A DNA stretch of 64,000 bases from an uncultured delta proteobacterium (GCA_963724765.1 CAVRVY010000004.1:1120001-1184000), one strand, 5' to 3'. Positions 17,542-39,460 are shown, counted from the first letter of the stretch. Notes: generated from the sequence alone by a model not told the origin. Made by a program: numbers and translations.

Positions 17542-17961
17542 ATGATAACGGGCGGATGCTTGTGCGGAGCTGTACGATACGAGGCTCAGGGGAATCCCCT
17601 GTTTGCGGTTCACTGCCACTGCCGCGACTGCCAGCGGGCATCTGGAACCGGGCATGTGCCGGTTATGGGTATGCCAAAGCCGCTGTTTAGGGTCACGGGC
17701 AAGACCAGGAGCTACGCGGCGGCGGGAATGAGCGGACTAAAGTCCATCCGGCACTTCTGTTTGACTTGCGGCAGCCTCCTCTTCGGAATGCCTGAGGTTG
17801 CCCCGGACGCCGTCAGCGTCTATGTCGGTAGCCTGGACGACCCGTCGGTGTTTCGGCCAGAGGCTATTCTATTCGCGCGCGATCGTCCGAGTTGGGATGG
17901 GATCGTGGGAGGCCTGCCGGAATTCGATACGATGCCTGTGCCACCGACGAATGCCCAGTGA
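17542..17961 (+). CDS. GFA (glutathione-dependent formaldehyde-activating/CENP-V) family protein
   Basis: GGCLCGAVRY, CHCRDCQRASG, RHFCLTCGS. Confidence 0.92.
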   Translation: MITGGCLCGAVRYEAQGNPLFAVHCHCRDCQRASGTGHVPVMGMPKPLFRVTGKTRSYAAAGMSGLKSIRHFCLTCGSLLFGMPEVAPDAVSVYVGSLDDPSVFRPEAILFARDRPSWDGIVGGLPEFDTMPVPPTNAQ

Positions 17962-18111
17962 GCGAGTGAAACTCGGGCGCGCGATTCAACGTCTCTGACG
18001 GGCCGCCCTATGCGCCTCGGATTTCGCAAACCGCAACCCCTGGTCGCTTGATTTCAGCATCAGCCCAGAATCCAACTTGCCCGCTGGCCAGAACTGCGTT
18101 TGTATAACCGG

Positions 18112-18800
18112 GTGTATAATGCACCGGTTGCTGATACCTCGCTCGTCGGCTGTCCCCACTGCGATCTGGTGCAGCGACTGCCTGATCTCGCGCCGGGCGC
18201 CTCGGCGCGATGCCCGCGCTGTAACGAGGAACTGTGGCGGCGGCACGAGGACCATCTGAACCGGACGCTCCGCTGACGATCGCAGCCGCGGTGCTGTACG
18301 TCATAGCGAATACCGTTCCCATGCTCGGCCTTACGATCGTTGGGCGCGAAGCCTCGACCACCGTGATCGGAGGCGCCGAGCACCTGTGGCAGGACGGGCA
18401 GAAGATCGTCGGCGCCCTCGTACTGTTCACCGCCGTCATCGCACCCGCGCTGCAGATCGGTTTCATGCTGGCGATCACGCTCGGAGCCCATCGCGAACGC
18501 CCACGAAAATGGGTGGGAACGCTGCTCCGCCATCACCCGACCACGCGGCTGTGGAGCATGATCGAGGTCATGCTGCTCGGCGTGCTGGTGGCGCTCATCA
18601 AGATTGCTGATTAAGCGACGGTAATTCCGGGGATGGCGCTGTTCGTGCTGGGGGCGCTCGTTTTCCTGCTCGCCGCGATCCAGGCGAACTTCGACGCGCG
18701 CGAGGTGTGGGACAGGATCGAGTGGGCGGACGCAAGCTCGCGTCCCGAGCATGCTGACGACCGGCACGCTGACAATCGAATGGCCGAGGCAAGGTGGTGA
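18112..18800 (+). pseudogene. pqiA: PqiA first half, disrupted by frameshift and nonsense codon
   Basis: GTG 18112: CPHCDL...CPRC...LNRTL, frameshift near 18271, then LTIAAAVLYVIAN...WSMIEV...KIAD, TAA 18612-18614, and the frame continues ATVIPG...FDAREVWDRI to TGA 18800. Confidence 0.85.
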
Positions 18801-19438
18801 GCGCCGCTGCGCCAACCGCGATGCAGCAGGGGCTGCAGAGCTGCGATACGTGCGGTCTGCTTTCCCGCCCCGTGCCGGGCGCGAGCGATGGCCGCTGTCC
18901 GCGCTGCGATGAGGAGCTGGCATTTCGCAAACCCGACAGCCTCCAGCGTACCTGGGCTTTCCTGATCGCCGCGGCGGTCTGTTACATCCCGGCCAACGTC
19001 CTTCCCGTCTTGACCACGACCACCGCCGCCGGCGCCGAGTCTGACACCATCCTGCAGGGCGTCGTGCTGCTGTGGTCGCCAAGCGGATGGCCGCTGTCGA
19101 TCATCGTACTCGTCGCGAGCATCATGATTCCGAGCGCCAAGATCCTCGCGCTGGCCTACCTGCTCATCAGCGTGCAGCGCGGTTCGATCAAGAATAACCA
19201 GCAGCGTATCCGGCTGTATCGGACCGTCGAATTCATCGGACGCTGGTCGATGGTCGACGTGTTTGTCGACACCTTTACCGCCGCGCTCATCCAACTTCAG
19301 CCGCTGATGTCGGTCGAGCCGGGGCCGGGCCTGTTCTTCTTCGCCGCGGTCGTGGTGCTGACGATGCTTGCGGCTGAATCCTTTGACCCTCGATTGATCT
19401 GGGATGCCACAAATATGAAAGAGGTTCGACATGGCTGA
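18794..19438 (+). CDS. pqiA: PqiA second half (paraquat-inducible protein A domain)
   Basis: CDTC..CPRC, SLQRTWA, YIPANVLP, IGRWSMVDVFV, FDPRLIWD. Confidence 0.92.
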   Translation: MVSAAAPTAMQQGLQSCDTCGLLSRPVPGASDGRCPRCDEELAFRKPDSLQRTWAFLIAAAVCYIPANVLPVLTTTTAAGAESDTILQGVVLLWSPSGWPLSIIVLVASIMIPSAKILALAYLLISVQRGSIKNNQQRIRLYRTVEFIGRWSMVDVFVDTFTAALIQLQPLMSVEPGPGLFFFAAVVVLTMLAAESFDPRLIWDATNMKEVRHG

Positions 19439-22930: not shown

Positions 22931-23698
22931 TCATCTAAGCATGGATGACAGCAGTCTCTGGATCGGTTCCTGACTTACGGTAATCAAGCCGCGCTCGGGC
23001 TGATTGAGATCCAGGATGACGTAGACGACGAAACTTGCGAGCATGATGAAGCAGATTGTGCCCGCAAGGTCGGCTTTTTCTGAAGCTCCCTGCTCGCGCC
23101 CGACCAGCATCGAGGCGACGACAGCGGCCACCAGCAGCAGTAACACGACGCTCGCCGGCAGCCGGTCCCGTATCGCAGCGAGGCGAGCGGCGTGATTACT
23201 GGTTACGCCATTTAGCGTATTGGTCAGCGAGACTGCGATCGGCGTACCGGCTACCAGGGCTTGATCGACGAGAACGGTCATCTGGTCCTGCATCTGTTGC
23301 ATCCGCCCAAGCGCGTTTTCGAGCGTGGCCTCGTCAATCCTTCGCCCGGACAACTCGACGCGCAGCCTGGTGTAGTCACGGATGACGGACTGCAATTTGG
23401 TTCGCACGGGCTCCTTTATGAGACTCGCGCAGGTATAGAAGTCGCCGATGGCACTGCTGTCGGCGACGAGCGTCAGCCGGCGCTGATCGTACCTGACGAT
23501 CGCCATCGAGAAGGTGAAGCCCAGCAGCAAGCCCAGGAGCGCAAGACTCGCGTCCTCGAATTTGGACACCGGCACCTCGCCGGACTCGATCCGCAGCCGT
23601 CGTCCGTGCCAACGTCCGAACTGCCAAGCGGCGAACATCGCCAACCCGAGCGCCAAAGCGGTTAACCACGCTTCAATGTCTGCAAAGATGCTGCCCAT
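22931..23698 (-). CDS. DUF4239/bestrophin-like membrane protein
   Basis: LALLGLLLGFTFSMA..RYDQRR, ILDLNQPERGLI.VSQ. Confidence 0.8.
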   Translation of the reverse strand: MGSIFADIEAWLTALALGLAMFAAWQFGRWHGRRLRIESGEVPVSKFEDASLALLGLLLGFTFSMAIVRYDQRRLTLVADSSAIGDFYTCASLIKEPVRTKLQSVIRDYTRLRVELSGRRIDEATLENALGRMQQMQDQMTVLVDQALVAGTPIAVSLTNTLNGVTSNHAARLAAIRDRLPASVVLLLLVAAVVASMLVGREQGASEKADLAGTICFIMLASFVVYVILDLNQPERGLITVSQEPIQRLLSSMLR

Positions 23699-23846
23699 GT
23701 CTTAGGTCCATCATGTTTTTCGCATCGGCATCTTTAACAGAAACCTCAATTCATTGCGCGCACAGAATCGGCGCGAGCAAGCGTCCTGTCTCGGGTCGGG
23801 GCACGCCTGGTGCGGCTCAGTCTTCCACCAGCCGCGAAGCGCCAAT

Positions 23847-23864
23847 ATCGGACCAAGGTCCGAT
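23847..23864. promoter_or_regulatory. 18-bp palindromic operator candidate (perfect copy)
   Basis: ATCGGACC-AA-GGTCCGAT in divergent intergenic region. Confidence 0.75.
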
Positions 23865-23997
23865 GGTTCCTGCTCGTAGGGAAGGCGAAACTGACGCCGG
23901 CGTTCCATCACATGCGGTAGATTATGCGAAAACCCGCAAGGCTTACCTCGGGCAGCGGCTCGGACATGCGCGCCATCCCGAGATGGAGTCGCTCTGA

Positions 23998-25074
23998 ATG
24001 AACAGCGAGAACGGATCCGAGCGAAGCATCGAACTGTGGATAGGTGTGGCGGCTGTGACGTTGCTCGTGGCCGGTTGCCTGCTGATCCTGAGCCCATTCA
24101 TATCTGCGGCGCTGTGGGCGGCGATTCTGTGCTTCACCACGTGGCCGATGTTCCTGCGACTCGATGCTGCGCTGGGCGCAAGGCGCTCGCTCGCGGCGTT
24201 GATAGCGACCCTGGCTATTGCGGCGATCATCGCCGTGCCAGTTGTGATCCTTGGAGCGACGCTGGCGAGCAACATCTCGGCCCTGATCAGCGCGGCTCAG
24301 CGGCTAGCCGATCAAGGGCCGCCAAAACTACCCGAATGGATAGCCGAAATTCCGCTGGTCGGTAGCCAGTTCGCCAATCACTGGAATCAACTGAGCGAAA
24401 GCAGTTCCGCGCGCATCGCGGCACTGATGAAATGGCTACCCGCGGCCAAGGAGTTCGTGCTGGGCAGCGGTCGCGCAGTGGGTAAAGGAATATTTCAAGT
24501 CATCCTGAGCCTGCTCATCGTGTTTTTTCTTTACCGCGACGGAGAAACCGCCGCCAAACGGCTGCACGCCACTATCGACCGGATCACAAAAGGAAACGGA
24601 GAACATCTTCTGGAGGTGGTGGGCTCGACGGTGCGATCGGTGCTGTATGGAGTTCTCGGGACCGCGCTGTTGCAGGGCGTGATGGCCGCGTTAGGGTTCG
24701 CGGTCGCGGGAGTTCCGGGAGCTCCGTTTCTTGGATTCGTTACCTTCCTCGTGTCGGCGATTCCCGCTGGCCCCCTGCTGGTCGCCGCATCGGCTGCCTT
24801 CTGGTTGTATCGGCAAGGAGCGACGGGATGGGCCGTCTTCATGATAATTTGGGGCTTGCTGGTGGGCACCCTGGACAACGTCGTGAAACCTATGTTGATT
24901 AGCCGCGGCGGCGGCACGACTCCGGTGGTCGTCGTGATGCTCGGGGTGTTGGGCGGTGCGATGGCGTTCGGACTGATCGGGCTCTTCCTGGGCCCGGCGC
25001 TTCTGGCGGTCGGCTACAGCCTTTTCGCCGCGTGGTCGTCCTCTGTGGCGGGGCAAGATCTCCGCGAAATCTGA
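23998..25074 (+). CDS. AI-2E family transporter (YdiK-like)
   Basis: PFISAALWA, FFLYRDG, DNVVKPMLI, GVLGG..AFGLIGLFLGP. Confidence 0.92.
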   Translation: MNSENGSERSIELWIGVAAVTLLVAGCLLILSPFISAALWAAILCFTTWPMFLRLDAALGARRSLAALIATLAIAAIIAVPVVILGATLASNISALISAAQRLADQGPPKLPEWIAEIPLVGSQFANHWNQLSESSSARIAALMKWLPAAKEFVLGSGRAVGKGIFQVILSLLIVFFLYRDGETAAKRLHATIDRITKGNGEHLLEVVGSTVRSVLYGVLGTALLQGVMAALGFAVAGVPGAPFLGFVTFLVSAIPAGPLLVAASAAFWLYRQGATGWAVFMIIWGLLVGTLDNVVKPMLISRGGGTTPVVVVMLGVLGGAMAFGLIGLFLGPALLAVGYSLFAAWSSSVAGQDLREI

Positions 25075-25088
25075 CCCATGTCGCGACC

Positions 25089-27539
25089 CTACGGCTGCAC
25101 CTCGCTATTCAATTGCATGAGTTGCTGGCGCACCTGCGCGTCGTTCGGCTCGAGTTCCGCCAGACGCTTCGCATAACCGGCCGCCTTTCCTGGATTTCCA
25201 GCGCTCCGGTAAAAGTTCACCAGCGCAGCAAGCGCCTCACGATCGTAAGGATGCCTGGCGACATCGTCCTCCAGCACATCGATCGCCTTCTCATTGCGCC
25301 CCGCGCTGTTGAGCGCCACCGCGTACACGTACGCGAAGCGTGCGTTCGCGGGTTCCAGCCGCGCGGCCGCCGCCAGATGGTCGAGCGCCTCCTGCTCATG
25401 TCCCTGACGCACCAGCAGCAGGCCGAGCGCATGCTGGAGCGCACCATCGCTCGGTGAACGGACGATGGCCTCGCGGAGCACGCGTTCGCCGTCAGCTTCG
25501 CGCCCGAGCACGCGATCGAGATCGGCGAGATTCACCGCCGCAGGCGTAAAGGATGAATCAAGCGAGAGCGCCGTGACGAGTTCGCGCTCCGCTTCAGCAA
25601 ATCGTTTTTCCGTGGCGAATAGCGAGGCGAGATTGCTATGAGCCTCCGGACGGTCCGCGTTCAATTCCTGCGCGGCGACATACTCGGCGATAGCCTTTTC
25701 GAGCGCCGCGTCCGCGGTTCTCGGCAAGGCATCCGCAGGCGCCCCCGCTAGCGCCTGTGCCGCCTCGATTCGCACGGCGCGCACGGGGTCATTGAGAAGA
25801 AGCGTTGAGACGCCGCGAATCGCATGGGGATCCGCATCAGGCAACGCGCGGGCGGCGGCGCGTCTGACCAGCGGCGAAACCACGCGCGCGCCCTCGCCCA
25901 CCGGCGCCGCACTGGCAGCTTCGGGATCGTTGGCCATGAGCGCGAGCGCGCTCGCGCGAGCTATCGCCGGCTGTTCGCGGTCCGCGAACAGCCGCGCGAG
26001 CGACCTTTGAGCCTCCGGAGCGCCAATCGCTCCCGCATGCATCGCCTCGGCGAACCGCTGAAATCCCGTGGGTTCGTGACCGTACCACTTTGTCACCAGA
26101 TTGGCCGCCCAGCCGGCGGACTTGTCGCGATGACATCTGTTACAGGCGTTAGGCACACCGATCTTTACCGAGAGATCGGGGCGTGGAATGCGGATACTGT
26201 GATCGCGCCGCGCATCCACGACCATATAGATTCGCGCCGGCATATGACATTCCACGCAGCGCGAGCCGGGAGAGCCGGCCTTGTGGAAATGGTGCTGCGC
26301 GGAATCGTACTTCTGCGCCGCATGGCATTGAAGGCAGACGCCGCTGCCCGGCACGCGAAGCCTCAAACTGTGCGGCTCGTGACAGTCGCTGCAAGTCACT
26401 CCCGCGTGGAACATCCTGCTCTGGATGAACGAGCCATACTCGTAAACTTCGTCCTTGATCTGGCCGTCCGGATAGTAGAGGTTGTCATCGAGCAATGAGA
26501 CCCGATAGTCATCGCCCACGGGCTGGCCGTGTACATAATCTTCATGGATTTGGCTTCGCCGTGAATGACATCGTGCGCACGTTTGGATTTCACGTTCCGA
26601 TTGGCGCGGAGCACTGCGGACCGCGTTCCCGCTCGCACGATCGATCTTCCAGCTCACTCCTTTGCGCTCGTCAAGCGCGATCGGCAGGCCATGATTCGCC
26701 TCGTAATGATGCCGGCCGCCGCTTCTCGCCGCCCACGCCACGTGATTGGAACCCGGGCCATGGCATGCTTCGCAAGCGACATCGATTTCGGCATACGCGG
26801 TGGCATACGTGCGCGTGGTGAGATGATAGTTTTTGCGCAAATTGGTCGAATGGCAGTCGGCGCACATGAAGTTCCAGTTTTGATCGACTCCGGTCCAATG
26901 CAGCGGATCGCCGGCGCTTAGCTTTCGATCGGGATACAGATGGAACCAGCGCTGGCCGCCACTTTCGCGGGCGCGGCTATCCCACGCAATCCGGAGCGCC
27001 TGAAGCCGGCCACCCGGCATCCCGACCAGGTATTGCTGCAACGGCGCAACACCGAAGGTGAATTTGATTTCGTAGTCGTGAAGCGCACCGTCCGGTCCGT
27101 CGGTCCGTACCATGAACTTGGCGCCGCGCCGGAACAGGCGTGACGTCACCACGCCATCAGACAAGCTTGCGTCGTTGAAGTCGCCAAGCACCGTAGAGTC
27201 GGTTGCCGGCTGCATGGCGAGCTCGTGATGCGATCCTTTCCACAGCCTCAACTCGCGCTCGTGACATCCGCCACAGACTGCGGCGCCGACGAAGGCGGCT
27301 GTGGGCGCGGACGATACTTTGTCCGCAGTCGCGTCATCGCGGGACGCCCGATGGCTCACCGTGCGCGCCATCAAAACGATCGCTGCGAAAACGATCGCGG
27401 CGATCGGCAGGAACGATGCCGGTATCCTAAGGCCGCGTGATGCAGTCTTCAGTGGCGAGGCCTGCGAAACTTGCTGTGCGACGCCGTCCGCCTTGCCAGA
27501 TTGGGGTTCCGTCTTTGCGCGTTTTCGCTTCCTGGCCAA
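25089..27539 (-). CDS. Octaheme c-type cytochrome with HEAT/TPR repeats
   Basis: Eight CxxCH motifs (CGGCH, CADCH, CEACH, CARCH, CSDCH, CLQCH, CVECH, CNRCH), N-terminal TM, TPR C-terminus. Confidence 0.9.
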   Translation of the reverse strand: MARKRKRAKTEPQSGKADGVAQQVSQASPLKTASRGLRIPASFLPIAAIVFAAIVLMARTVSHRASRDDATADKVSSAPTAAFVGAAVCGGCHERELRLWKGSHHELAMQPATDSTVLGDFNDASLSDGVVTSRLFRRGAKFMVRTDGPDGALHDYEIKFTFGVAPLQQYLVGMPGGRLQALRIAWDSRARESGGQRWFHLYPDRKLSAGDPLHWTGVDQNWNFMCADCHSTNLRKNYHLTTRTYATAYAEIDVACEACHGPGSNHVAWAARSGGRHHYEANHGLPIALDERKGVSWKIDRASGNAVRSAPRQSEREIQTCARCHSRRSQIHEDYVHGQPVGDDYRVSLLDDNLYYPDGQIKDEVYEYGSFIQSRMFHAGVTCSDCHEPHSLRLRVPGSGVCLQCHAAQKYDSAQHHFHKAGSPGSRCVECHMPARIYMVVDARRDHSIRIPRPDLSVKIGVPNACNRCHRDKSAGWAANLVTKWYGHEPTGFQRFAEAMHAGAIGAPEAQRSLARLFADREQPAIARASALALMANDPEAASAAPVGEGARVVSPLVRRAAARALPDADPHAIRGVSTLLLNDPVRAVRIEAAQALAGAPADALPRTADAALEKAIAEYVAAQELNADRPEAHSNLASLFATEKRFAEAERELVTALSLDSSFTPAAVNLADLDRVLGREADGERVLREAIVRSPSDGALQHALGLLLVRQGHEQEALDHLAAAARLEPANARFAYVYAVALNSAGRNEKAIDVLEDDVARHPYDREALAALVNFYRSAGNPGKAAGYAKRLAELEPNDAQVRQQLMQLNSEVQP

Positions 27540-27623
27540 GGCGATTAGTGACGCTCGAATCGAGTGCGCGAGACGCCAGACATGACAGGCGTCCTGGCGA
27601 TTATGATTTCGGCTCCGGCGCGC

Positions 27624-28352: not shown

Positions 28353-28544
28353 CTCTGTTTCGATCCTCTTGGTTGTTGCTCATCTCTTCCCCGGCGTATG
28401 GCTTGGACGGGGGCTTCCGGCCTTCGCCTGATGGCTGCTTTTTTCGAATCGTCGGTGCCGACGTCGGCGGCGGCACATGGACCAGCGCCTTGTGAACTAT
28501 ATACTTGCCGCGCGCCGGGCAAGTCTCATCGCCAGCCGCAGTCT

Positions 28545-29252: not shown

Positions 29253-29337
29253 CGCAAATCTCCCGATATGGTTCGCCGAGGCGTTGGCTAAACGCTGCGG
29301 CGCGCCCGTCTACGCGCGTTTTGTCTCAAACGATGCC

Positions 29338-31784
29338 TCAGTCCTCTGCAGCCTTATCCAGTTCAAGAAGCTCCTGGTCCTTTTCCTCGACTGCTTTGTC
29401 GACCGGCTTCATATCCTGCACCGCGATGGTCACCTGGTGGATTTTGCCGGTGAATTTATTCTCGCCTTGCTTGTAGTCTTCGGTCACCGGGGTCTCCATA
29501 TCCTCGCCGACGTCGGCGCCCTCGTCGGCTGAAAAAACCATCGCGTTCGTGTGGTCGACGCGTCCCTCTGCGACCTTCTTGTCATTGACGAAAATCGTTC
29601 CGGTGCCGCCCGCTCCCATCCCGCCGTCGTATAGGCGAACTCGTAGCGGATAGTTGCGTTGCCAGGCGGAATTGGTTGCTTGGCCGCGACTGTGTACCGT
29701 TTCAGACCTACCCAGTTGTAGGTGTAAATTGGCCGGCCGTTCTTGAGATATAGCGTCCATCCGCCAAAGCGCCCGCCCTGGCATAAGATTACGCCGTTCG
29801 CGTTTTTATCCGGGACGTCGACCTCGGCTGTGATTGAGTGGGAGCGGTTCTTCACATTAATGAAGACGTTCTCCATCATTCCGGTCATACCCTCATAGAC
29901 CGTGAGCGATTTACGGCCCGCCATCAGGTCAGGCCGCCCTGCCAAGGCTGCGTTTGCGCGCTCGATTGTTCGATCGTCAATGGGCAGTACATGGTATTTG
30001 ACCGCTTCGATCATGAATGAGTTCTGCATCTGCTTGAGCTTGTCGCGGTTGCTCGCGGCGAGATCGTTGGCAAGGCTGAAATCATTTTCGGTGCTGTACA
30101 ATTCCCACTTGTCATCCGCGAGAGAGGCTCGTGGCTTCATCTCCCACGGCGCCTTGTGAACGGTGCCCGCCAGCCAACCGTCCTGGTAAAGGCCCCGGTT
30201 GCCAAATATCTCGAAGTACTGCACCGTATGGCGGCTCTTGGCGTTGGCTTGGTCGAATGTGTACATCATGCTCACGCCCTGGATTGGGATCTGCGCGGCG
30301 CCGTTTACCATTTTGGGCTCTGGCAATTCCGCGGCCTCCAAAATGGTGGGAGCCACGTCTATAACGTGATGGAATTGCGAACGGACTTCGTTCTTCGCCT
30401 TGATTCGCTTTGACCAATAGATGACCAGTGGATTGCGCGTGCCGCCGAAGCTCGAGGCGACCTGCTTGGTCCAGGTAAACGGCGTATCGCCGGCAACGGC
30501 CCATCCGGCGGCGTAGTGACTATAGGACAGCGGACCGCCCAGGTCGTTCATGCGGCTCAACTGTTCTTGAATGCTCTCCGGCACGCCGTTGAAGTAGGTC
30601 ATCTCGTTGAAGAGACCCTGCATGCCCCCTTCGGCGCTCGCTCCATTGTCGCCGACGATGTAGAACACGAGCGTGTTGTCCAACTGGCCCGTGTCCTGGA
30701 TGGCCTGAATCAGACGGCCAATCTCATGGTCGGTCATTTCTCCAAACCCCGCGAAAACCTCCATCTGATGCGCGAATAGCTTCTTCTCATCCGAGGTCAG
30801 CGCATCCCAGTCCTTGATGGCCTTCGGTTTCGGCGCGAGCTTCGTACCGGGCGGCACCACGCCCAGCTTTATCTGCCGCGCCAGCGTCTGCTCTCGCACT
30901 TTGTCCCAGCCCTGATCGAACTGGCCCTTATATTTCGCGATCCACTCCTTCGGCACCTGATGCGGCGCGTGAACAGCCCCCGGCGCATAGTAGATGAAAA
31001 ACGGCTTGTTTGGAGTCAGCGCCTTCTGCGTGCGCATCCAGTTGATCGCCTGATCGGTCATGTCGGTAGTGAAATGATAGTTGCGGTCGTGCGGAGGTTC
31101 GATCTTTACCATTCCGTCAAAGAGCATCGGCGACCATTGATTAGTCTCGCCGCCGATGAATCCATAGAACTTGTCGAAGCCTGAACGGATCGGCCACCGG
31201 TCGGTCGGGCCGGACACGCTGAGCTCCCAGGCTGCCGTCTCGTGCCACTTGCCGAACGCGGCGGTGCTGTAGCCATTGAGCCGGAGCGTCTCGGCGAGCG
31301 GTGCGACGCTGGCGGGGCGCACGCCGGTTTGTCCCGGAAAAGCGGTTGCCACTTCCATGATCGCGCCGGTGTTTACCACATGATGATTGCGGCCGGTCAG
31401 AAGCGCGGCACGCGTCGGCGAGCAGAGCGCCGTGGTATGGAACTCGTTGTAGCGAAGTCCGTCAGCAGCGAGCTTTTCGAGCGTCGGCATACGGACTGGC
31501 CCACCGAAGGCGCTGGCCTGGCCGAATCCCATGTCGTCGATCAGCACGATCAATACGTTGGGAGCGCCCGCCGGCGCCTTGACCTCGAATCGGGGTGGAG
31601 GCGTAGCCCTGCGTGCGTCAAGTTCCGTGATTGCCGGATACCTGGGCTCCGGGATCGGCAGCACGGTGCGATCCAGCGGAGCATCTTGAGCCGACGCTGC
31701 GCGCGCCACGCAGGCCGCCGCGGTCACGACAAGAACCACCATCCAGATTCTCGCTATCGATCTGTTCGCGACCTCAGGTTTCAT
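29338..31784 (-). pseudogene. Cys-type arylsulfatase with a frameshift near the C-terminus
   Basis: GGAG RBS, signal peptide, PNVLIVLIDD, CSPTRAALLTGR, FGKWH, GDNG; YEFAY switches frame at about 29630 to DGGMGAGG...FTGKIHQVTI. Confidence 0.88.
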
Positions 31785-31879
31785 GGCGTACTCCGCCGGC
31801 GATGCTCGGACCTTAATTGGTCGCGTTACGAAATCGCGCTCGGTGACTTGCATACTCATCGCGGCACACCGGCTGGTAA

Positions 31880-31955
31880 ATCAGACCTTGGTCCGATGCG
31901 TCCCGAGCATCCGAACCGAACCTTGACGCCAAAGCGAATCCGACCAAGGTCTGAT
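31880..31955. promoter_or_regulatory. Pair of 18-bp palindromic operator candidates
   Basis: ATCAGACC-TT-GGTCCGAT (31880-31897) and ATCCGACC-AA-GGTCTGAT (31938-31955) between divergent sulfatase and regulator genes. Confidence 0.75.
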
Positions 31956-32041
31956 TTCGTAGTTGTGCATAATCTGAGCATGCTGGACGTGAGCATCGGT
32001 GCGATCGTGATGGCCGTCCGCCCCGGAGACAATTTGCTCTT

Positions 32042-32428
32042 TTGACAACCGGAACGAAACCCGCCCTGATCCTGGTGGAGGACGATTCATCGGTTCTCCG
32101 CGCACTGCGCAGATTAATGCTCGCCGCAGGCTTTCGAGTGATGGCCTTCGATCGGCCGGACGCAGTTCTCGATAGCGAACTTCCGAAAGCCAACGCCTGC
32201 CTGGTGGTCGACGTGCATCTTCCCGAGATGAACGGGGTGCAACTCTGCGAGACCCTGGCCGCTTCTGGATGCCGGTTGCCGGTGATAATGATCACCGGCC
32301 ATGTCGACCAGGCTACGCGCGAATTAGTGCAGCGCGCGAAGGCCGTCGCCGTTCTGTTCAAGCCGTTTACCCGAGACTCGTTGCTGGAGGCGATTTCCGA
32401 GGCTCTGGCGGCCGGCAAATGCGTTTAG
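32042..32428 (+). CDS. Stand-alone response regulator receiver
   Basis: LVEDD, CLVVDVHLPEMNG, MITG, FKPF. Confidence 0.9.
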   Translation: MTTGTKPALILVEDDSSVLRALRRLMLAAGFRVMAFDRPDAVLDSELPKANACLVVDVHLPEMNGVQLCETLAASGCRLPVIMITGHVDQATRELVQRAKAVAVLFKPFTRDSLLEAISEALAAGKCV

Positions 32429-32495
32429 CCTTAGCTTTGCCCGCGATGGGCATCCTTGTAGAAAGGAGCAGCGATTAGGGCTAGAATTTGCTCGC

Positions 32496-33806
32496 GTGTC
32501 GCGAATTACGACTTCCAGACAAGCCGCCCCGCTGCGAGGCTCCAAGCATCCCGGCGCTTCATCTGATGAGACGCGCCAATTCGAGGAGTTGATCATCGAG
32601 TTGGCCAGTGCGTTCGTGCGGGTCACAGGCGACAAGATCGACCGGGAAATCAATCGCTGGCTGGAGCGAATTGTTCTGGCCCTGGGCCTGGATCGCAGCA
32701 CGATCGCCGAGATCAATCCTGCGGACGGTTGGGCCACCTTTAGCCACGGCTGGGCGCGCGAGCCGGAGCACATTATCGGCAGCTCGCTGGACGTCAACAC
32801 TCTGATGCCTTGGACCAAGCGAAAGATGCTGGCGGGAGCGACAGTCGTGATGCCGAACGTGGACGCGCTGCCCGACGAGGCCGCCGTCGACCGTGAAAGT
32901 ATGCGGCTCCACGGGCCCAAATCCAGCGTGATGGTACCGATAAGGGTTGGCGGAGTAGTCGTCGCGGCGGTCGGATTCGGAGCCCTGTACCGCGAGCGCT
33001 CCTGGCCGCCGCGGATTGTCCGGCGGCTGCAGACGGTGGCGCAGATCTTCGGCTTCGCGCTGGAGCGCAAGCGCGCGATAATCCAGGTGCTCCAACTGCG
33101 CAACGAACTGACCTATATCTCGCGCGTCAGCACCATGGGCGAGCTGGCGGCTTCGCTGGCGCATGAAATCAACCAGCCGCTGGCGGCGATTCGGAGCAAC
33201 GCCGAGGCAATCCAGAGCATGCTCGAATCGAAGACGCCGGACCTCGACGAAATCAAGGCGGCAGTCGCGGATATAGTCACTGACGACGCGCGCGCGGGCG
33301 AGACGATTCGCCGGCTGCGTGCGTTATTCCGGCGCGAGGACCTTGCGCGCTCAGAAATCGAGCTTGGAGAACTATTGCGAGAGGTCAGCCGCATAATCAG
33401 GAGCGACGCTATAATTCGCAAGATCTCGCTTACGCTTGACCTGCGCCAACCGCTGCGCCCGGTCTTTGCCGATCGAGTTCAGATACAGCAGGCGATAATC
33501 AATCTTCTCCTGAACGCGTTCGATGCGGTTTCCGGGACGGAAGAGAACTCACGCCAGGTCGCACTATCCGCGGTGGCGGAAGACTCCGGCTGCGTCAGGG
33601 TGCTCGTATACGATTCGGGCAAAGGAATCGACCCGGACGTTATGCCTCGAATCTTCGATGCCTTCTTCACGACCAAGCCCAATGGCATGGGAATGGGGCT
33701 GGCTATTTCACGATCGATCGTCGAAGCGCACGGCGGACGGCTTTCCGTTTCGTCAAACCCGGGCCACGGCACGACCTTTGAGATCACGCTTCCCTGTCCG
33801 GTCTGA
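32496..33806 (+). CDS. Cytoplasmic GAF-domain sensor histidine kinase (FixL/NodV-like core)
   Basis: MGELAASLAHEINQPL, NLLLNA, DSGKG, FFTTKPNGMGMGL; no evident TM. Confidence 0.92.
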   Translation: MSRITTSRQAAPLRGSKHPGASSDETRQFEELIIELASAFVRVTGDKIDREINRWLERIVLALGLDRSTIAEINPADGWATFSHGWAREPEHIIGSSLDVNTLMPWTKRKMLAGATVVMPNVDALPDEAAVDRESMRLHGPKSSVMVPIRVGGVVVAAVGFGALYRERSWPPRIVRRLQTVAQIFGFALERKRAIIQVLQLRNELTYISRVSTMGELAASLAHEINQPLAAIRSNAEAIQSMLESKTPDLDEIKAAVADIVTDDARAGETIRRLRALFRREDLARSEIELGELLREVSRIIRSDAIIRKISLTLDLRQPLRPVFADRVQIQQAIINLLLNAFDAVSGTEENSRQVALSAVAEDSGCVRVLVYDSGKGIDPDVMPRIFDAFFTTKPNGMGMGLAISRSIVEAHGGRLSVSSNPGHGTTFEITLPCPV

Positions 33807-33849
33807 AGCATCCCTTTGAGGGCGAACCGAAATCGCCTATCCGCGAACC

Positions 33850-34509
33850 ATGACGCAAAGAACGGTAGTAGCTATTATCGACGACGAGGAATCGGTTCGG
33901 AAGTCGCTGGTACGGATGCTTCAGGCAAAGGGGGGGCTCCAGGCGCTGGCATTCCCGTCAGCGCAACAGTTTCTGGACAGTCCCCAAAGCAAAATCGTCT
34001 CTTGCGTCGTGTCGGACCTGCGGATGCCCGAGATGGACGGGCTGGGCTTTCAACGGATGCTGCACGCGAAGCTGCCGCATCTTTCGATGGTCTTCATCAC
34101 CGGCCACGGCGACATTCCCGCCAGCGTCACGGCGATGAAGGCCGGTGCGGTCGACTTTCTCGAGAAGCCGGTGAAGGGCGCCACCTTGATCGATGCCATA
34201 CACCGGGCCAGCGAGCGCAGCTTCAAGTTGCAGGCCGTCAATGCCGAGATCGACGCATTAAAGGCTCGCTACGAGACATTGACCCCGCGCGAGCGCGAGG
34301 TCTTCTCGCTGGTCGCAGCCGGTCTCCTGAACAAGCAGGTCGCGGCCCAGCTCGGCGTCGCCGAGAAAACCATCAAGCAGCATCGTGGCCACGTGGTCGA
34401 CAAGATGGCGGTGCAATCGCTGGCCGACCTGGTCCTGATGGCCGAGCGTCTCGGCGTCAGGCCAAACGGAGCCGATTTCGCTAGAGCCATGGGTAAGCTG
34501 ACCTTATAG
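33850..34509 (+). CDS. FixJ/NodW-like REC-LuxR response regulator
   Basis: IIDDE, SDLRMPEMDG, FITGHGD, AMKAGAVDFLEKP, LTPRERE, LNKQVA. Confidence 0.95.
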   Translation: MTQRTVVAIIDDEESVRKSLVRMLQAKGGLQALAFPSAQQFLDSPQSKIVSCVVSDLRMPEMDGLGFQRMLHAKLPHLSMVFITGHGDIPASVTAMKAGAVDFLEKPVKGATLIDAIHRASERSFKLQAVNAEIDALKARYETLTPREREVFSLVAAGLLNKQVAAQLGVAEKTIKQHRGHVVDKMAVQSLADLVLMAERLGVRPNGADFARAMGKLTL

Positions 34510-34529
34510 AGCGCGCGGCGCCAATCCCA

Positions 34530-34547
34530 CTGAGACTAAAGTCCGAT
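34530..34547. promoter_or_regulatory. 18-bp palindromic operator candidate upstream of mlaE-like operon
   Basis: CTGAGACT-AA-AGTCCGAT. Confidence 0.6.
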
Positions 34548-34614
34548 TTGCCGCGGCTTCGCGCGCTGACATCATGGCCCAACACTGAGTCAGCATGGAA
34601 GAAGGCGTGATCCG

Positions 34615-35766
34615 ATGAGTGCTGTCGCACAGAGGCTGGATCAGGGACGGATATCCTTCGAGCGGACTGACGAGTCGACGCTCGTGGCGCACCTTTCCGG
34701 CCCCTGGCATTTGCAGCGCGATCTGCCGCCAATTTCCGTGCTGCTCGCCGAACTCGGTGCGCGGCCCGGCGCCAAGCGGCTATCGTATGAGACTGCCGAG
34801 CTTACGCACTGGGACAGCGGGCTGATCTCATTTCTGACCAATACGGCCGAGATCTGTCGCGCACGCGGGATCGTCGAGGATCGCGGCGGGCTTCCGGCCG
34901 GCCTAAGACGCCTGCTCGAACTGGCCGAGGCGGTTCCTGAAAAAAAGGGCGCGCGCAGCGAGGCGGTGCGCATCTCGTTCTTCGAGCGCGTGGGCAACGT
35001 GACGATCGGCTATGGCCTCTCAGTGGGCGAGTTTCTGGGTTTCCTCGGCGATGTGACGCTGGCCTTCGTAAAATTTTTCCGCGGCAAAGCGCGCTATCGA
35101 AAGATCGACCTGCTCGAGGTCATCCAGGAATGCGGCCCCAGCGCGGTCGGAATCGTCACCCTGATCTCGTTTCTGGTCGGTGTGATCCTCGCCTTCATGG
35201 GCGCGGTGCAGTTGTCGCAGTTCGGTGCGTCGATTTACGTCGCCGATCTAGTCGGCATCGGCATGGTCCGCGACATGGCCGCGATGATGACGGCGATTAT
35301 CATGTCGGGCCGCACCGGGGCCGCGTTCGCCGCAAAGCTCGGCACGATGAAGGTGACCCAGGAGATCGACGCGCTGACTACGATGGGCGTGTCGCCGCTG
35401 GAGTTTCTGGTCCTGCCGCGGGTGCTCGCGCTGGTGCTGATGATGCCGCTGCTCTGCCTGTTCGCAGACCTGGTCGGAATACTCGGCGGCCTGTTCGTCG
35501 GGGTCGCGATGCTCGATCTGTCCGCCGGCAGTTATCTGCGCGAGACCATCTCGACTCTGACCCTGGTCAACCTGTTCGGCGGGATAATCAAGGGAACTTT
35601 CTACGGCGTGCTGATAGCAATTGCCGGATGCCTGCGCGGCTTTCAGTGCGGCAACAGCTCCTCGGCGGTCGGCGATGCGGCGACGCAGGCGGTGGTGATG
35701 GCGATCGTCATGATCGTGGTCGCTTGCGGCCTGTTTGCCGTGGTTTTCAATTTCCTGGGGATTTGA
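34615..35766 (+). CDS. mlaE: MlaE-family ABC permease with N-terminal STAS-like region
   Basis: SGRTGAAFAAKLGTMKVTQEIDALTTMG, PRVLA, VGDAATQAVV. Confidence 0.92.
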   Translation: MSAVAQRLDQGRISFERTDESTLVAHLSGPWHLQRDLPPISVLLAELGARPGAKRLSYETAELTHWDSGLISFLTNTAEICRARGIVEDRGGLPAGLRRLLELAEAVPEKKGARSEAVRISFFERVGNVTIGYGLSVGEFLGFLGDVTLAFVKFFRGKARYRKIDLLEVIQECGPSAVGIVTLISFLVGVILAFMGAVQLSQFGASIYVADLVGIGMVRDMAAMMTAIIMSGRTGAAFAAKLGTMKVTQEIDALTTMGVSPLEFLVLPRVLALVLMMPLLCLFADLVGILGGLFVGVAMLDLSAGSYLRETISTLTLVNLFGGIIKGTFYGVLIAIAGCLRGFQCGNSSSAVGDAATQAVVMAIVMIVVACGLFAVVFNFLGI

Positions 35767-35780
35767 GCGCGCACCTCACG

Positions 35781-36587
35781 ATGGCTGCAGGAAACAGCGA
35801 AAATCGCTCCAACGAGGAGCCGCACATCATCGTCCGCGACCTGACGATGGCCTACGGCAGTTTCGTCCTGATGCGCGATCTCAACTTCATGGTGAAACGC
35901 GGCGACATGTTCATCATCATGGGCGGCAGCGGATGCGGCAAGAGCACGCTGCTGCGCCATCTGATCGGGCTCAAGGAACCTGCGACGGGGGAGATCCTCT
36001 ATGGAGACGTGAATTTCACCCGCGCCGGGCAGGAACAGCGCGAACGGCTGCTGCGACGCTTCGGTATTCTGTACCAGAGCGGCGCACTGTGGAGTTCAAT
36101 GACGCTAGCGGAGAACATCGGCCTGCCGCTCGGCGAGTTCACCGATTTGACGCCGTCGCAGATCCGCGAAATCGCCGCGCTCAAGCTGGCGCTGGTCGGG
36201 CTCAAAGGTTTCGAAGACTTCTACCCCAACCAGATCAGCGGCGGCATGCAGAAGCGCGCGGGGCTGGCGCGCGCGATGGCGCTCGATCCGGACATCCTGT
36301 TCTTCGACGAGCCGTCGGCCGGACTCGATCCGATTAGCTCGCGCCTGCTCGACGATTTGATCCTCGAGCTGCGCGCGAATCTTGGCGCAACGATAGTCGT
36401 GGTCACCCACGAGCTGGCCAGCATCTTTACCATCGCCAACAACAGCGTCTTCCTGGACGCGGAGTCGCGCGTCCAGATCGCGACCGGCGATCCGCATGAC
36501 ATGCTTGCGCATTCGAAAGACCCGCGGGTACGAAGGTTTCTCACTCGCGGACAAGAGGGAGGCGACTCAGTAGGCAGTCATGAGTAA
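35781..36587 (+). CDS. mlaF: MlaF-family ABC ATPase
   Basis: GGSGCGKS, ISGGMQKRAGLARA, FFDEPSAGLDP. Confidence 0.93.
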   Translation: MAAGNSENRSNEEPHIIVRDLTMAYGSFVLMRDLNFMVKRGDMFIIMGGSGCGKSTLLRHLIGLKEPATGEILYGDVNFTRAGQEQRERLLRRFGILYQSGALWSSMTLAENIGLPLGEFTDLTPSQIREIAALKLALVGLKGFEDFYPNQISGGMQKRAGLARAMALDPDILFFDEPSAGLDPISSRLLDDLILELRANLGATIVVVTHELASIFTIANNSVFLDAESRVQIATGDPHDMLAHSKDPRVRRFLTRGQEGGDSVGSHE

Positions 36588-37557
36588 ACGGGTCAGTCCA
36601 GCGGTAATCGGCGCGTTCGTCGTCGCCAGCTTTGCGATCCTGGTGGTAGCCTTGATCGTAGTCGGCTCGGGCCGGATGTTCACCAGGCCGATTCGCTTCA
36701 TCTGCATGTTCCAGGGCAACCTCAACGGATTGAAGATTGGCGCGCCGGTCAAGGTCAGGGGAGTGCAGATCGGCACGGTCGCGGCGATCGAGCTCAGGCT
36801 CTTGCCCTCCCAGGGAACGATACGACCGGGTATCAGGGGTCTTCGATTGCCGGTCATCATCGATGTCGACCGATCGCAACTGCTGGCGAGGGGAGGAACC
36901 GGCGCGGCGCTCGACAAGACCGGCTTCGATGACATGATCAAAATGGGAATGCGGGCGCAACTCAATACAGAAAGTCTTCTGACCGGACTTCTGTATATCG
37001 ATCTCGATCTCCACCCCAACACGCCAATCAAATATGTGCTGGAGCCGGGCGGACCTTACCGGGAAATCCCGACCGTGCAGACCGACCTGGCGCAGCTCCA
37101 GGAACGGCTGACGCAGGCACTGGATAAATTCGAGAAGATCGACTTCCAGGCCCTGGTCACCTCAATTACCGACGCCGCCAACTCGATCAAGACTCTCACC
37201 GGTTCGCCGGAACTCAAGGCCACGTTGGAGTCGCTCAAGGGAACAGTTGCGAATCTGAACCAGGCGGTCACCTCAGCCCGCAATCTGCTCAATAGCGCCA
37301 ACTCAAAGGTCGGTCCGCTGGTTACGGATATTCGAGAGAGCTCGGACGAAGCCAACAAGACGATGAAGGAAACCCGTGCCGCGTTGGTCAGCCTCCAGCA
37401 AACGCTCGATCCCGGCTCGCCACTGGCGGTGCATCTCAACCAGACCCTCGACTCACTTACCGAGACCTCGCGATCGCTCGGAGAGTTCACCGACTATCTG
37501 CAGCGCAATCCAGGCGCTTTGATCCGCGGACGGTACGTGCCGGACAAGGATAAGTGA
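36580..37557 (+). CDS. mlaD: MlaD/MCE protein with helical extension
   Basis: IGAFVV TM, GLKIGAPVKVRGVQIG, RAQLNTESLLTG, NPGALIRG. Confidence 0.88.
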   Translation: MSKRVSPAVIGAFVVASFAILVVALIVVGSGRMFTRPIRFICMFQGNLNGLKIGAPVKVRGVQIGTVAAIELRLLPSQGTIRPGIRGLRLPVIIDVDRSQLLARGGTGAALDKTGFDDMIKMGMRAQLNTESLLTGLLYIDLDLHPNTPIKYVLEPGGPYREIPTVQTDLAQLQERLTQALDKFEKIDFQALVTSITDAANSIKTLTGSPELKATLESLKGTVANLNQAVTSARNLLNSANSKVGPLVTDIRESSDEANKTMKETRAALVSLQQTLDPGSPLAVHLNQTLDSLTETSRSLGEFTDYLQRNPGALIRGRYVPDKDK

Positions 37558-38225
37558 CCGTGATGAATCTCAAGACGAAGGTGATCGCGTTCGGCGCGTG
37601 CGCGATGGCGGCGGGATGTTCGGTACTCTCGCCCCAGCCCGACCGCTCCAAGTTCTTCATCCTGACCCCTGTTTCCGACAGCGCCAGGATGTCCGCCAAT
37701 CCGGCCTCGACCAACCCGAGTTCGCAGCTCACCATCGGGGTGGGTCCGGTCGATTTCCCCGAGTATCTTCGCCGTCTGCCGGTGGTGACGCGCGTCGCGC
37801 CCAACCGAATCGATCTCTCCGATGAAAAGCGCTGGGCCGAGCCGCTCGACAAGAATTTCGTACGCGTGCTGTCGGAAAACCTTGCGACGCTGCTGAACAC
37901 CCAGCGGATCGAGAAATATCCGTGGGCGCTGAGGGCCAAGGTCGACTACCAGATCGAAATTGACGTCCAACGGTTCGAGACCACCAGCGACGGCCAATCG
38001 CAGCTACTCGCGAGCTGGATCATCAGAGATGGCCAGAGCAGCAAAATCCTATACGCGTCACGGACCACCGCCGGAGCGCCTGCGGGGGCCGACGAGCTCA
38101 GCGCGTCATCAGCCCTGAGCAGCGATCTGGCGACGCTCAGCAAGGAGATTGCCTTGCGGGTCACGGAACTTAGCCATCATCGCACCCCCATCAACGCGGA
38201 TTCGAGTGCCGCTTCAGCCTCCTGA
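37554..38225 (+). CDS. PqiC-family lipoprotein
   Basis: Lipobox AAGC, VGPVDFPEYL, RWAEPL, IDVQRF. Confidence 0.88.
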   Translation: MTVMNLKTKVIAFGACAMAAGCSVLSPQPDRSKFFILTPVSDSARMSANPASTNPSSQLTIGVGPVDFPEYLRRLPVVTRVAPNRIDLSDEKRWAEPLDKNFVRVLSENLATLLNTQRIEKYPWALRAKVDYQIEIDVQRFETTSDGQSQLLASWIIRDGQSSKILYASRTTAGAPAGADELSASSALSSDLATLSKEIALRVTELSHHRTPINADSSAASAS

Positions 38226-38303
38226 CTACCATCGCACGACGGCGGCGTGTCTCACCGGAAGCGGCTATACCGTAAACCAGGACTGGTGACGGACAATACT
38301 CAT

Positions 38304-39263
38304 TCAGAGTTCAAGCTTCGGAAATAATAGACCGACCTGAAAATTCATAGTGAATTGCTCAGTCTCATTGACAAACTGCCGATAGGCGGTCCACTCACCC
38401 GAAGCGGAAGTATCGATCGCGTAGCCATTGGAAAACTGCCAGACCCTGCCGAATCCCGCACTCAGTGGGATTGTGGTCGAGGTCTTGTGGCGCAGGTTGA
38501 AAGTCCACGTCGCGTCACTCGAGCTCAGGTACCATCCGTGCCCGAGCTCATAGCTCAGAATCGGCTGAAACGTCAGCGCGGAAACCGGAGTCGCCTTCGA
38601 CGAAGTATACGCGAATGAGGTCGCTTGCTGCAGAAGTCCGGCGATATCAAGTCCGGGAATTCCGCGATAGGAAAAAGCCCCGGCCGGTCCCATCTGCCAC
38701 GATTTGTTTCCAGTGCGGTCACTCGACGCAGTCGGAAACACCAGATATGGTCCGATTCCCAAACGCAGGCCAATCTCCTTTGAGTTCGGCCATGGTATCG
38801 CAAACAGGTCAAGCAATTGCATGTCGTCGTACGCCGTTGTCGTCGATGCGCCCTTTCCATTGGGAACGGTCACTATCTTGATTGTCGGACGGATAAGCTG
38901 TTCCACAGGGATGAATGAGAAAGGACGAATCGCGAAGATCGACCTGAGCTGTACCGTATTCGGCTGCGCATTGGTGCCGTATTCGGCCGGAGTATATAAG
39001 TCTTTGACTTGTATCTGAGTCAGGTACGAGAGCGGATCCGTTACCTGTTCGGCCAGTGGTTCATTGTCGGACTGGCTGGCAGGTACAGACACTGATTGCC
39101 CGTAACTGAGCGAAGGGCGCGCAATCAGAAGCATCGCCAAGATCAGGACCTGGCCGGGCGCGGCTTTGACATACTTGCGTGCCGGTCCATCGTTGCAAGA
39201 GCGCTGGTCCGCGCGGCTCGCCGGCCGCAACACCCGCGAGTCCGTTTCTAATGAAATTTCCAT
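38304..39263 (-). CDS. Putative outer-membrane beta-barrel protein
   Basis: Alternating beta strands, GIGPYLVFPTA, WQMGPA, FQPILSY..G.GWY; start uncertain. Confidence 0.65.
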   Translation of the reverse strand: MEISLETDSRVLRPASRADQRSCNDGPARKYVKAAPGQVLILAMLLIARPSLSYGQSVSVPASQSDNEPLAEQVTDPLSYLTQIQVKDLYTPAEYGTNAQPNTVQLRSIFAIRPFSFIPVEQLIRPTIKIVTVPNGKGASTTTAYDDMQLLDLFAIPWPNSKEIGLRLGIGPYLVFPTASSDRTGNKSWQMGPAGAFSYRGIPGLDIAGLLQQATSFAYTSSKATPVSALTFQPILSYELGHGWYLSSSDATWTFNLRHKTSTTIPLSAGFGRVWQFSNGYAIDTSASGEWTAYRQFVNETEQFTMNFQVGLLFPKLEL

Positions 39264-39379
39264 TTTCTCTCACGATTCAAACTGACCGGCCGTCAAGGGA
39301 CAGCCGGCTTTTCGCTTTCCTCCATCACCCGGGACCACTTCGCAGTCCCCATGGTGCGTGACATTCAGAGGCCGCGCAA

Positions 39380-39460
39380 ACCGGACTTAGGTCCAATAGC
39401 CCAGGCGCTCGCCGAATGGGAGACCGGCGCGGCATCCTGCGCCTAGGACCAAGGTCCAAT
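39380..39460. promoter_or_regulatory. Pair of 18-bp palindromic operator candidates
   Basis: ACCGGACT-TA-GGTCCAAT (39380-39397) and CTAGGACC-AA-GGTCCAAT (39443-39460) in divergent intergenic region. Confidence 0.72.

Follow-up and report, generated by a model that had tools for sequence, protein, structure and literature searches.

The closest described relatives of the system examined here are NarL, FixJ and the mycobacterial DosR/DevR, together with EL222, whose DNA-binding domain is coupled to a LOV input. The recognition helix of DosR begins E-K-T-V-K, and its kinases, DevS and DosT, use HisKA_3. At the Escherichia coli yeaR and ogt promoters, a NarL dimer on an inverted repeat centred at -43.5 or -44.5, with 2 bp between the half-sites, suffices for activation and contacts the alpha C-terminal domain of RNA polymerase (PMC10853779, PMC7419079). 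As described in PMC5001607, EL222 binds an inverted repeat as a dimer, an 18-bp EL222 site overlapping the -35 element of the luxI promoter activates in E. coli, and a site within the core promoter represses; the published 12-bp EL222 consensus is RGNCYWWRGNCY (PMC10521638). The DosR box of Mycobacterium tuberculosis, TTSGGGACTWWAGTCCCSAA, is present as a consensus string in PMC2275270 and PMC2703886. Here, we analysed a 64,000-nt stretch of the genome of an uncultured delta proteobacterium (GCA_963724765.1, CAVRVY010000004.1:1120001-1184000; hereafter the window), in which an 18-bp palindrome lies in the promoter regions of an island of envelope genes with an embedded response regulator, P0001 (33850-34509, + strand). 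We consider it likely, on comparative grounds, that the palindrome is the operator of P0001, a REC-GerE regulator of the FixJ/NarL family that would activate its own operon and the envelope promoters.

Comparison with known systems

Pfam places a Response_reg domain (2.5e-24) at residues 7-117 of P0001 and a GerE helix-turn-helix (HTH) domain (4.9e-19) at residues 143-198, and the translation shows the acidic pair, the phospho-acceptor Asp, the Thr and the Lys, in agreement with the NarL/FixJ domain layout. Over its full length, P0001 is closest, among solved proteins, to StyR (1yio, 1.2e-42) and FixJ (5xso, 1.8e-37). It does not belong, however, to any of the equivalog groups of FixJ, NarL and DosR: it scores 186.9 bits against the NCBIfam FixJ cut-off of 255, and 69.9 against the NarL cut-off of 250. 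The kinase core of the neighbouring sensor P0003 (32496-33806, +) is closest to FixL (8a7f, 3.3e-48), but P0003 reaches 197.5 against the FixL cut-off of 850, and its sensor domain is GAF, not haem-PAS. Scores below both cut-offs, together with the GAF sensor, therefore make this system a relative of FixLJ rather than FixLJ itself. NarL belongs to the same family (REC plus GerE HTH, E 4e-17 to P0001) but differs in half-site sequence, kinase and signal, and the NarL-like operator position proposed below is read from -10-like hexamers, not from mapped transcript starts.

The best Protein Data Bank match of the C-terminal domain of P0001 is EL222 (4.3e-15), the recognition helices being EKTIKQHRG and EKTVKMHRG, respectively. 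The palindrome, too, is an inverted repeat, as is the site bound by the EL222 dimer (PMC5001607), and seven of the eight strong sites fit RGNCYWWRGNCY at 12 of 12 positions, with the site at 31938 fitting at 11 of 12 (PMC10521638). EL222 differs in its LOV input, which replaces the phospho-receiver of P0001, in its unrelated targets, and in that its consensus spans 12 bp, whereas the natural motif described here spans 18 bp with a conserved outer AT...AT. With DosR, the palindrome shares the GGACT-WW-AGTCC core and the system shares a GAF-domain kinase partner. Yet the similarity of DosR to P0001 is weak (HTH E 7e-6, full length 6.4e-16), its box is 20 bp long with GGG/CCC where the 18-bp motif has GG, P0003 carries HisKA (PF00512) in contrast to the DosR partner kinases, and the genes faced here are envelope and sulfatase genes without dormancy genes. 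Membership of the DosR/DevR regulon was thus rejected on protein similarity, box and targets. The original prediction had not recognised the motif as a described one; this stands for the 18-mer, which was not found in the open-access full-text literature, whereas the 12 bp at its core conform to the EL222 consensus and are similar to the DosR box. In open-access full text, the six literal 12-mers that make up the core occurred only as unrelated primers or eukaryotic sequences.

Occurrence of the palindrome

The home genome comprises 5.4 Mb in four contigs (62% G+C), and the window corresponds to C4:1120001-1184000. Searching both strands of the window for ATCGGACYWWRGTCCRAT with up to three mismatches yielded 13 strand matches, compared with 0.58 expected, a number reached in none of 100 shuffles. 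These matches mark 17731, 23847 (no mismatches), 31880, 31938, 34530, 39380 and 39443, which are the seven copies listed in the original prediction; its designation of 23847 as perfect and its spacings of the paired sites (58 bp from 31880 to 31938, 63 bp from 39380 to 39443) were likewise correct. The consensus, approximately AT-CGGACY-WW-RGTCCG-AT, consists of two 8-bp half-sites around a 2-bp centre (8-2-8), a layout compatible with binding by a dimer. Across the whole 5.4 Mb, 30 sites have at most three mismatches (seven of them in the window) and 11 have at most two (five in the window).

A first weight matrix, built from the six best sites, scored these at 25-30 and, in a genome scan, picked out C1:298833 (22.6) and C3:1282078 (20.4), with all other positions at 17 or below. 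A second matrix, rebuilt from these eight sites, gave 19.9-29.0 for the six sites within 23847-39460 and nine sites of at least 19 genome-wide, of which six lie inside 15.6 kb and one, C1:318031 (19.1), was newly found. Symmetrically column-permuted matrices (n=20) returned a mean of 1.25 and a maximum of four sites at this threshold against the nine real ones, although eight of the nine had trained the matrix, which ranks these same sites highest. The reversed pattern is therefore the cleaner control, and it has no match in the home genome. The strong sites all fall between genes, 67-148 nt upstream of a start codon (with corrected starts). Clustered as they are and lying 5′ of genes, the copies show neither an even genome-wide spread nor a placement 3′ of genes in the manner of repetitive extragenic palindromic (REP) sequences. 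Besides the six strong sites, none of at least 12 occurs in the 64-kb window (the next best, at 15192, scores 11.8), and the exopolysaccharide and catabolic blocks are indeed free of the motif, as had been noted by eye.

The seventh copy (17731-17748), inside the GFA gene, had been taken to tie pqiA to the regulon and to extend the island to 22 kb, which our analyses do not support. Its score of 9.8 is equalled or exceeded by 96 positions genome-wide, or roughly one in every 56 kb; no -10-like hexamer lies at the proper distance from it; and no site of at least 5 was found in the 1 kb upstream of pqiA in the related genomes G016 and G014. In view of this absence before pqiA, we dropped the pqi operon together with the 17731 copy, which is probably a chance match outside the regulon. 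A weak site suggested at 23698-23709 contains a single half-site, not a full site, and overlaps the start codon of the bestrophin-like gene. Taken together, the results support a regulated stretch of 23847-39460, plus two to three sites elsewhere in the genome.

Conservation alongside the regulator in related genomes

The regulator search covered this genome and 40 relatives, in which the motif was counted as forward-strand matches with at most two mismatches. Orthologues of P0001 (76-91% identity) are present in nine of the 16 same-genus genomes, and these nine carry 6, 10, 11, 11, 5, 4, 7, 5 and 11 motif matches, compared with 1, 0, 0, 0 and 2 in the five same-genus genomes without a regulator match at E<=1e-30. 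Four matches occur in G004, which has 53% identical paralogues only, one in G007, which has a 53% identical paralogue only, and 0-1 in genomes outside the family; the reversed pattern yields 0-2 across the relatives. In G013, the P0001 orthologue is the sole regulator match, yet seven motif sites are present. The compared genomes are mutually related, and the co-occurrence of regulator and motif is to be read as a pattern, not as a test.

Islands were compared in eight of the nine orthologue-bearing genomes, the copy of G011, on a short contig, being omitted. In all eight, the REC-only gene that opens the regulator operon has a site 85-100 bp upstream of it, and another lies between the regulator stop codon and mlaE, with scores of 17.9-27.8 for these two core sites, and the mla operon is syntenic downstream of the regulator. 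The motif is thus present upstream of the orthologous genes, where its absence would have told against an operator. Beyond this core, the gene order is rearranged. In alignments of the two conserved promoters, the conserved blocks are the motif and a hexamer 22-23 nt downstream of it, while the flanks diverge. REC-only, sulfatase, DUF3313 and 319-aa protein genes recur as themes in further loci of the same family (in G022, G023, G016, G015 and G007). In L006 and G003, a DUF4410 gene has its own upstream site.

Several features of the relatives are recorded for completeness. In the G001 island (L088/L089), and only there, about 1.8 kb of extra DNA separates the regulator-proximal site from mlaE. 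Island genes of several relatives (G002, G003 and G009) appear as broken tblastn segments, for which frameshifts in the draft assemblies may be responsible. In two same-genus genomes, strong sites in L111 (G004:C2, a perfect copy) and L110 (G015:C32, 20.9) precede large adenylate/guanylate cyclase-AAA-TPR (STAND-like) genes, and DUF1254/DUF1214 genes lie downstream of motif sites in L110 and L006.

Related regulators in other phyla

A cross-phylum sample of 80 loci (1.43 Mb) around regulator homologues 41-52% identical to P0001, with the window's own genus left out, contained 27 sites of at least 19 in 15 loci, against a single untrained site in the 5.4-Mb home genome. In at least five phyla, such sites are found no more than a few hundred bp away from regulator genes. 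The genes that they face include REC-only genes (seven loci), the regulator gene itself (three), sulfatases (two), DUF4410, DUF1254/DUF1214, DUF2092, phospholipase D, two sensor kinases and a universal stress protein, the last at one Desulfobacterales locus; a position directly 3′ of the regulator gene, like that of 34530, is recurrent.

The presence of the motif follows a residue of the recognition helix, by which 83 regulator copies were sorted. A site of at least 19 lies within 4 kb of 13 of the 23 regulators with Lys or Arg before the helix Thr (E-K/R-T-V/I-K), but of only one of the 60 others, which mostly have Ile or Val at this position (Fisher p 2.6e-8, a value that overstates the support because the compared sequences are related). 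Of the ten Lys/Arg-helix copies that lack a strong site, six have weaker look-alikes, with scores of 14-18. In a maximum-likelihood tree of 85 rows, which is a quick version, all regulators with a nearby site fall on one 29-row side (Shimodaira-Hasegawa-like approximate likelihood ratio test 95), whereas the other side, 56 rows from Bradyrhizobium, Rhizobium, Pseudomonas, Stenotrophomonas and others, includes no regulator with a copy of the motif within 4 kb; homologues from these four genera carry an E-I/V-T helix. Within the six-frame translation of the home genome, P0001 alone has a K-T-[VIL]-K-x-[HY] helix. By crude tblastn, the REC-only/kinase neighbourhood does not discriminate the two sides (REC-like matches 17/27 vs 31/56, kinase cores 20/27 vs 48/56). 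In an alphaproteobacterial metagenome-assembled genome, a palindrome, ATCATACCTTGGTATGAT (L034 7914-7931), lies about 2 kb from an E-I-T-helix regulator; it could be the matching operator of the motif-less clade, with ATACC replacing GGACC.

These observations may be combined into the broader proposal that the motif marks a clade of FixJ-like regulators across phyla, which as a joint statement we put a little short of an even call. The clade would extend over Binatia-like bacteria, Verrucomicrobiota, Thermodesulfobacteriota, Acidobacteriota, Pseudomonadota and possibly Planctomycetota, and would share the helix E-K/R-T-V/I-K-x-H-R, the 18-bp operator and a site centre at about -44. Its recurrent targets would be secreted sulfatases and lipoproteins of unknown function (DUF3313, DUF4410, DUF1254/DUF1214), with autoregulation through the REC-only gene; EL222 would be a LOV-fused offshoot, and a single helix residue (Lys/Arg versus Ile/Val) would decide whether the half-site is GGAC or some other sequence. 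No description of an operator of the Lys/Arg-helix clade was found in the literature searched.

Promoter geometry and proposed mechanism

In the home genome, read by eye, an nAnnnT hexamer begins 21-23 nt after the motif in all nine gene-facing directions (CATCAT, CATGCT, CACCAT, CAACAT, GAGTAT, GAAACT, AAGACT, GATGAT and CATCAT) and in neither of the two directions that do not face a gene. The same spacing recurs in other genera and phyla, where, among 27 gene-facing directions, the hexamer is found at offset 22 in ten and at offset 23 in eight, compared with 0-3 at any other offset from 10 to 39. If the hexamer is the -10 element, the motif would span about -52 to -35; it would thus end where the -35 element would begin, which would place its centre 43.5 or 44.5 bp upstream of the predicted transcript start. 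A consensus scan found neither a sigma-70-type promoter nor a terminator at the sites, and the lack of such a promoter is as expected for activator-dependent promoters.

The following mechanism is consistent with these data. The soluble GAF kinase P0003 would sense a cytoplasmic signal and phosphorylate P0001, which would then dimerise, each HTH reading one GGAC/GTCC half-site. Given the predicted centre of the site, NarL-like activation is expected, and the dimer may thus activate weak promoters as NarL does at yeaR and ogt. The REC-only/kinase/regulator operon would be under positive autoregulation, its REC-only product being a likely phosphate sink or modulator. Further candidate targets are the promoters of mlaEFD with its auxiliary lipoprotein gene; of the sulfatase, possibly with the DUF4410 and cytochrome/TPR genes behind it; of a 319-aa beta-rich secreted protein and of the DUF3313 lipoprotein; and of the divergent bestrophin-like and AI-2E genes.

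The original prediction had already named the palindrome as the operator of the embedded regulator, proposing autoregulation and coordination of the Mla-type MCE transporter, sulfatase and lipoprotein genes. The assignment to P0001 gains support from a motif count that follows the regulator, conservation in all eight islands, the tracking of the helix residue and the fit to the EL222 consensus, and the proposed coordination gains comparative support from sites upstream of orthologous genes.

Alternative explanations

Several observations weigh against this assignment, in addition to the limits given above for the matrix, the co-occurrence, the Fisher value and the tree. We infer from sequence that P0001 binds the sites and that it activates rather than represses, and the same holds for the transcript starts, the signal of the kinase and the role of the REC-only protein. 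The -35-like hexamers are poor and variable, so that, judging from the DNA, repression or another sigma factor is also possible. Ten of the 23 Lys/Arg-helix homologues have no site of at least 19 within 4 kb, and G015, a 74% complete genome, has two good sites and no regulator match. Finally, a strong site is found at a distance of 1.3 kb from a paralogous regulator, P0004 (C1:300124-300720; 45% identical to P0001, helix E-R-T-V-K-A-H), which could itself bind some of the sites or even all of them.

The last point opens what we regard as a possible, if rather doubtful, alternative, namely that the operator is common to P0001 and P0004, or is used mainly by the latter, and that two paralogous three-component modules cross-regulate or form a cascade. 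P0004 is part of a mini-copy of the island (bestrophin-like gene, site, DUF3313, regulator, GAF kinase and REC-only), in which the strong site at C1:298833 (27.5) precedes the DUF3313-P0004 gene pair by 95 nt, and E-R-T-helix regulators in G022 and G023 have motif sites upstream of their own REC-only, sulfatase and DUF3313 genes. On the other hand, G013 keeps its seven sites with the P0001 orthologue as sole regulator match, and the REC-only gene of the P0004 module is preceded by a GTAC variant of the palindrome, which hints at a slightly different preference. Sharing of the operator would also overlap with, and not exclude, its use by P0001. The variant, ATTGTACCAAAGTACAAT (C1:302929-302946; L001 8930-8947), is a perfect 18-bp palindrome with GTAC replacing GGAC, 89 nt upstream of the paralogous REC-only gene, and CAGAAT begins 22 nt after it; it may be P0004's own operator variant. 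GTAC half-sites also occur beside the E-R-T-helix regulator of G023 (L107). The relation of Lys versus Arg in the helix to GGAC versus GTAC in the half-site is suggestive for P0004 and G023, and mixed in G022 and G011.

That P0001 binds the motif but represses, the sites abutting or overlapping the -35 element and blocking RNA polymerase until a signal removes the protein, appears unlikely. The sites do immediately adjoin the presumed core promoters, repression from within a core promoter is described for EL222 (PMC5001607), and in the REC-only promoter a CATAAT 13 nt after the motif would, if it were the real -10 element, put the motif over the -35. The CATAAT is, however, not conserved in eight relatives, whereas the CATGCT block is. 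A distance of 22-23 nt between motif and -10-like hexamer is fixed across phyla, which places the site just upstream of a poor -35, the arrangement of activator-dependent promoters, and the negative sigma-70 consensus scan extends to every site. Much less probable still is that another transcription factor, encoded elsewhere, binds the motif and that its linkage to the regulator gene is coincidental. The tie between P0001 and the motif comes from sequence comparison, and the sites of G015 without a detected regulator would suit such a factor; against it stand the co-occurrence over 41 genomes, the proximity to regulator genes in at least five phyla, the correlation with a recognition-helix residue, and the match of the core to the consensus of the closest solved HTH, that of EL222. 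Among the 30 island open reading frames (ORFs) scanned with Pfam, moreover, no DNA-binding domain other than those of P0001 was found. The least credible reading, which we hold to be close to negligible, is that the palindrome is a structural or selfish repeat, such as a REP-like element, terminator hairpin or recombination site. It could fold into a hairpin, and the 34530 copy lies 21 bp after a stop codon; yet the genome holds only about nine copies, six of them clustered and the strong ones all 5′ of genes, the motif copies are clear of all 13 terminator-like sites in 23600-39700, and the copies are conserved at orthologous promoters while the flanks diverge, with the reversed-pattern control near zero. 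A repeat of the REP or bacterial interspersed mosaic element type, or a terminator, was ruled out by the few copies, the 5′ position and the lack of a T-run after them.

Sites and genes of the island

Pfam confirmed the gene names given in the original prediction, identifying GFA, PqiA, MlaD/PqiB, bestrophin-like (DUF4239), AI-2E, sulfatase, REC, GAF kinase, REC-GerE regulator, MlaE and DUF3313 genes. The perfect predicted operator, ATCGGACCAAGGTCCGAT (23847-23864, score 29.0, no mismatches), lies midway between the divergent genes for the bestrophin-like protein (22931-23698, -) and the AI-2E-family transporter (23998-25074, +), with GAAACT and AAGACT beginning 22 nt from either end, so that a suitable hexamer is present on both sides; its counterpart in G016 lies just upstream of the bestrophin-like orthologue.

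The stretch 25089-31784 (-) encodes the sulfatase (791 aa), two DUF4410 lipoproteins and a multihaem-cytochrome/TPR protein, which possibly form one transcription unit. A putative operator at 31880-31897 (-, 27.8) faces the sulfatase gene, with GAGTAT beginning 22 nt downstream on the - strand, and has counterparts upstream of the sulfatase in G016 and, weakly, in G013. On the other side, the predicted operator of the REC-only/kinase/regulator operon (31938-31955, +, 24.5), with CATGCT at 31979-31984, precedes the single-domain receiver P0002 (32042-32428, +; Response_reg 1e-19), the soluble GAF-HisKA-HATPase kinase P0003 and P0001. Downstream of the regulator, the candidate operator at 34530-34547 (+, 19.9), with CATCAT at 34570-34575, begins 21 bp past the stop codon, and the block conserved in the alignment consists of the motif, TTGCCG, 16 nt and CATCAT. 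It precedes the mlaE-mlaF-mlaD-auxiliary lipoprotein operon (34615-38225, +), an MCE-type ABC transporter with MlaE, ABC_tran, MlaD and ABC_trans_aux domains.

The remaining pair of sites separates the gene of a 319-aa secreted protein, P0007 (38304-39263, -), from that of a DUF3313 lipoprotein (39563-40345, +; 3.6e-44, lipobox LFAC). The putative operator at 39380-39397 (-, 24.2) faces the former, with CACCAT beginning 23 nt downstream on the - strand and counterparts in G005, G013 and L105; that at 39443-39460 (+, 23.3) faces the latter, with CAACAT beginning 23 nt downstream and counterparts upstream of DUF3313 in G005, G013, G014 and the C1 paralogue. We read the paired sites as probable back-to-back operators of divergent promoters, one pair serving the sulfatase and the REC operon and the other the 319-aa protein and DUF3313. 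The first in-frame ATGs of the sulfatase (31784-31859) and DUF3313 (39488-39563) genes lie within the predicted promoters, and the true starts are probably 25 codons downstream, at Met 31784, followed by the signal peptide, and at Met 39563, followed by the lipobox. P0007 has no Pfam match, even at E<=1, and no NCBIfam match. Its AlphaFold model is all-beta, with about 12-14 strands, at low confidence (predicted local distance difference test 52.5), and Phenol_MetA_deg is found in 11% of the members of one atlas cluster; an atlas cluster that resembles P0007 is commonest in Candidatus Binatota. P0007 is probably an outer-membrane beta-barrel.

Outside the window, the site at C1:298833 precedes the second DUF3313 gene, a second sulfatase-family gene has C1:318031 60 nt upstream of it, and C3:1282078 lies 95 nt upstream of the gene for a 110-aa secreted protein. 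An IS1595-family transposase gene (C3:1283753-1284721; L002 6754-7722) is 1.7 kb from the C3 site, and the DNA around this small secreted-protein target may be mobile or have undergone recent rearrangement. Outside the regulated stretch, pqiA (18234-19438) consists of two ORFs of 126 and 214 aa that both contain a PqiA domain and are separated by about 180 nt; because the same split is present in G016 and G014, a conserved arrangement seems more likely than an error of assembly. Just upstream of the island, the gene at 14119-16743 (-) encodes an 874-aa protein whose C-terminal domain is like the N,N-dimethylformamidase beta subunit (PF20254, 2.2e-108).

Implications

The regulatory principle is not new, as a response regulator with a palindromic operator near -44 is of a well-known kind. 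Less expected is that operator, helix and spacing are conserved across phyla and that sulfatases and lipoproteins recur as targets. Judged by titles and abstract openings, no paper on the regulation of DUF3313 or DUF4410 was found in open-access full text; the analysis would place both families under one signal, along with the 319-aa beta-rich protein, secreted sulfatases and an Mla-type lipid transporter. The resemblance to EL222, a widely used optogenetic factor, may offer natural promoter designs for that protein. Because related regulators of several phyla have this operator, with its spacing, beside them, a single binding experiment would serve to annotate many genomes. For an uncultured lineage of soil and peat, the analysis proposes a regulon comprising an operator sequence, its likely regulator, about nine promoters and a predicted activation geometry.

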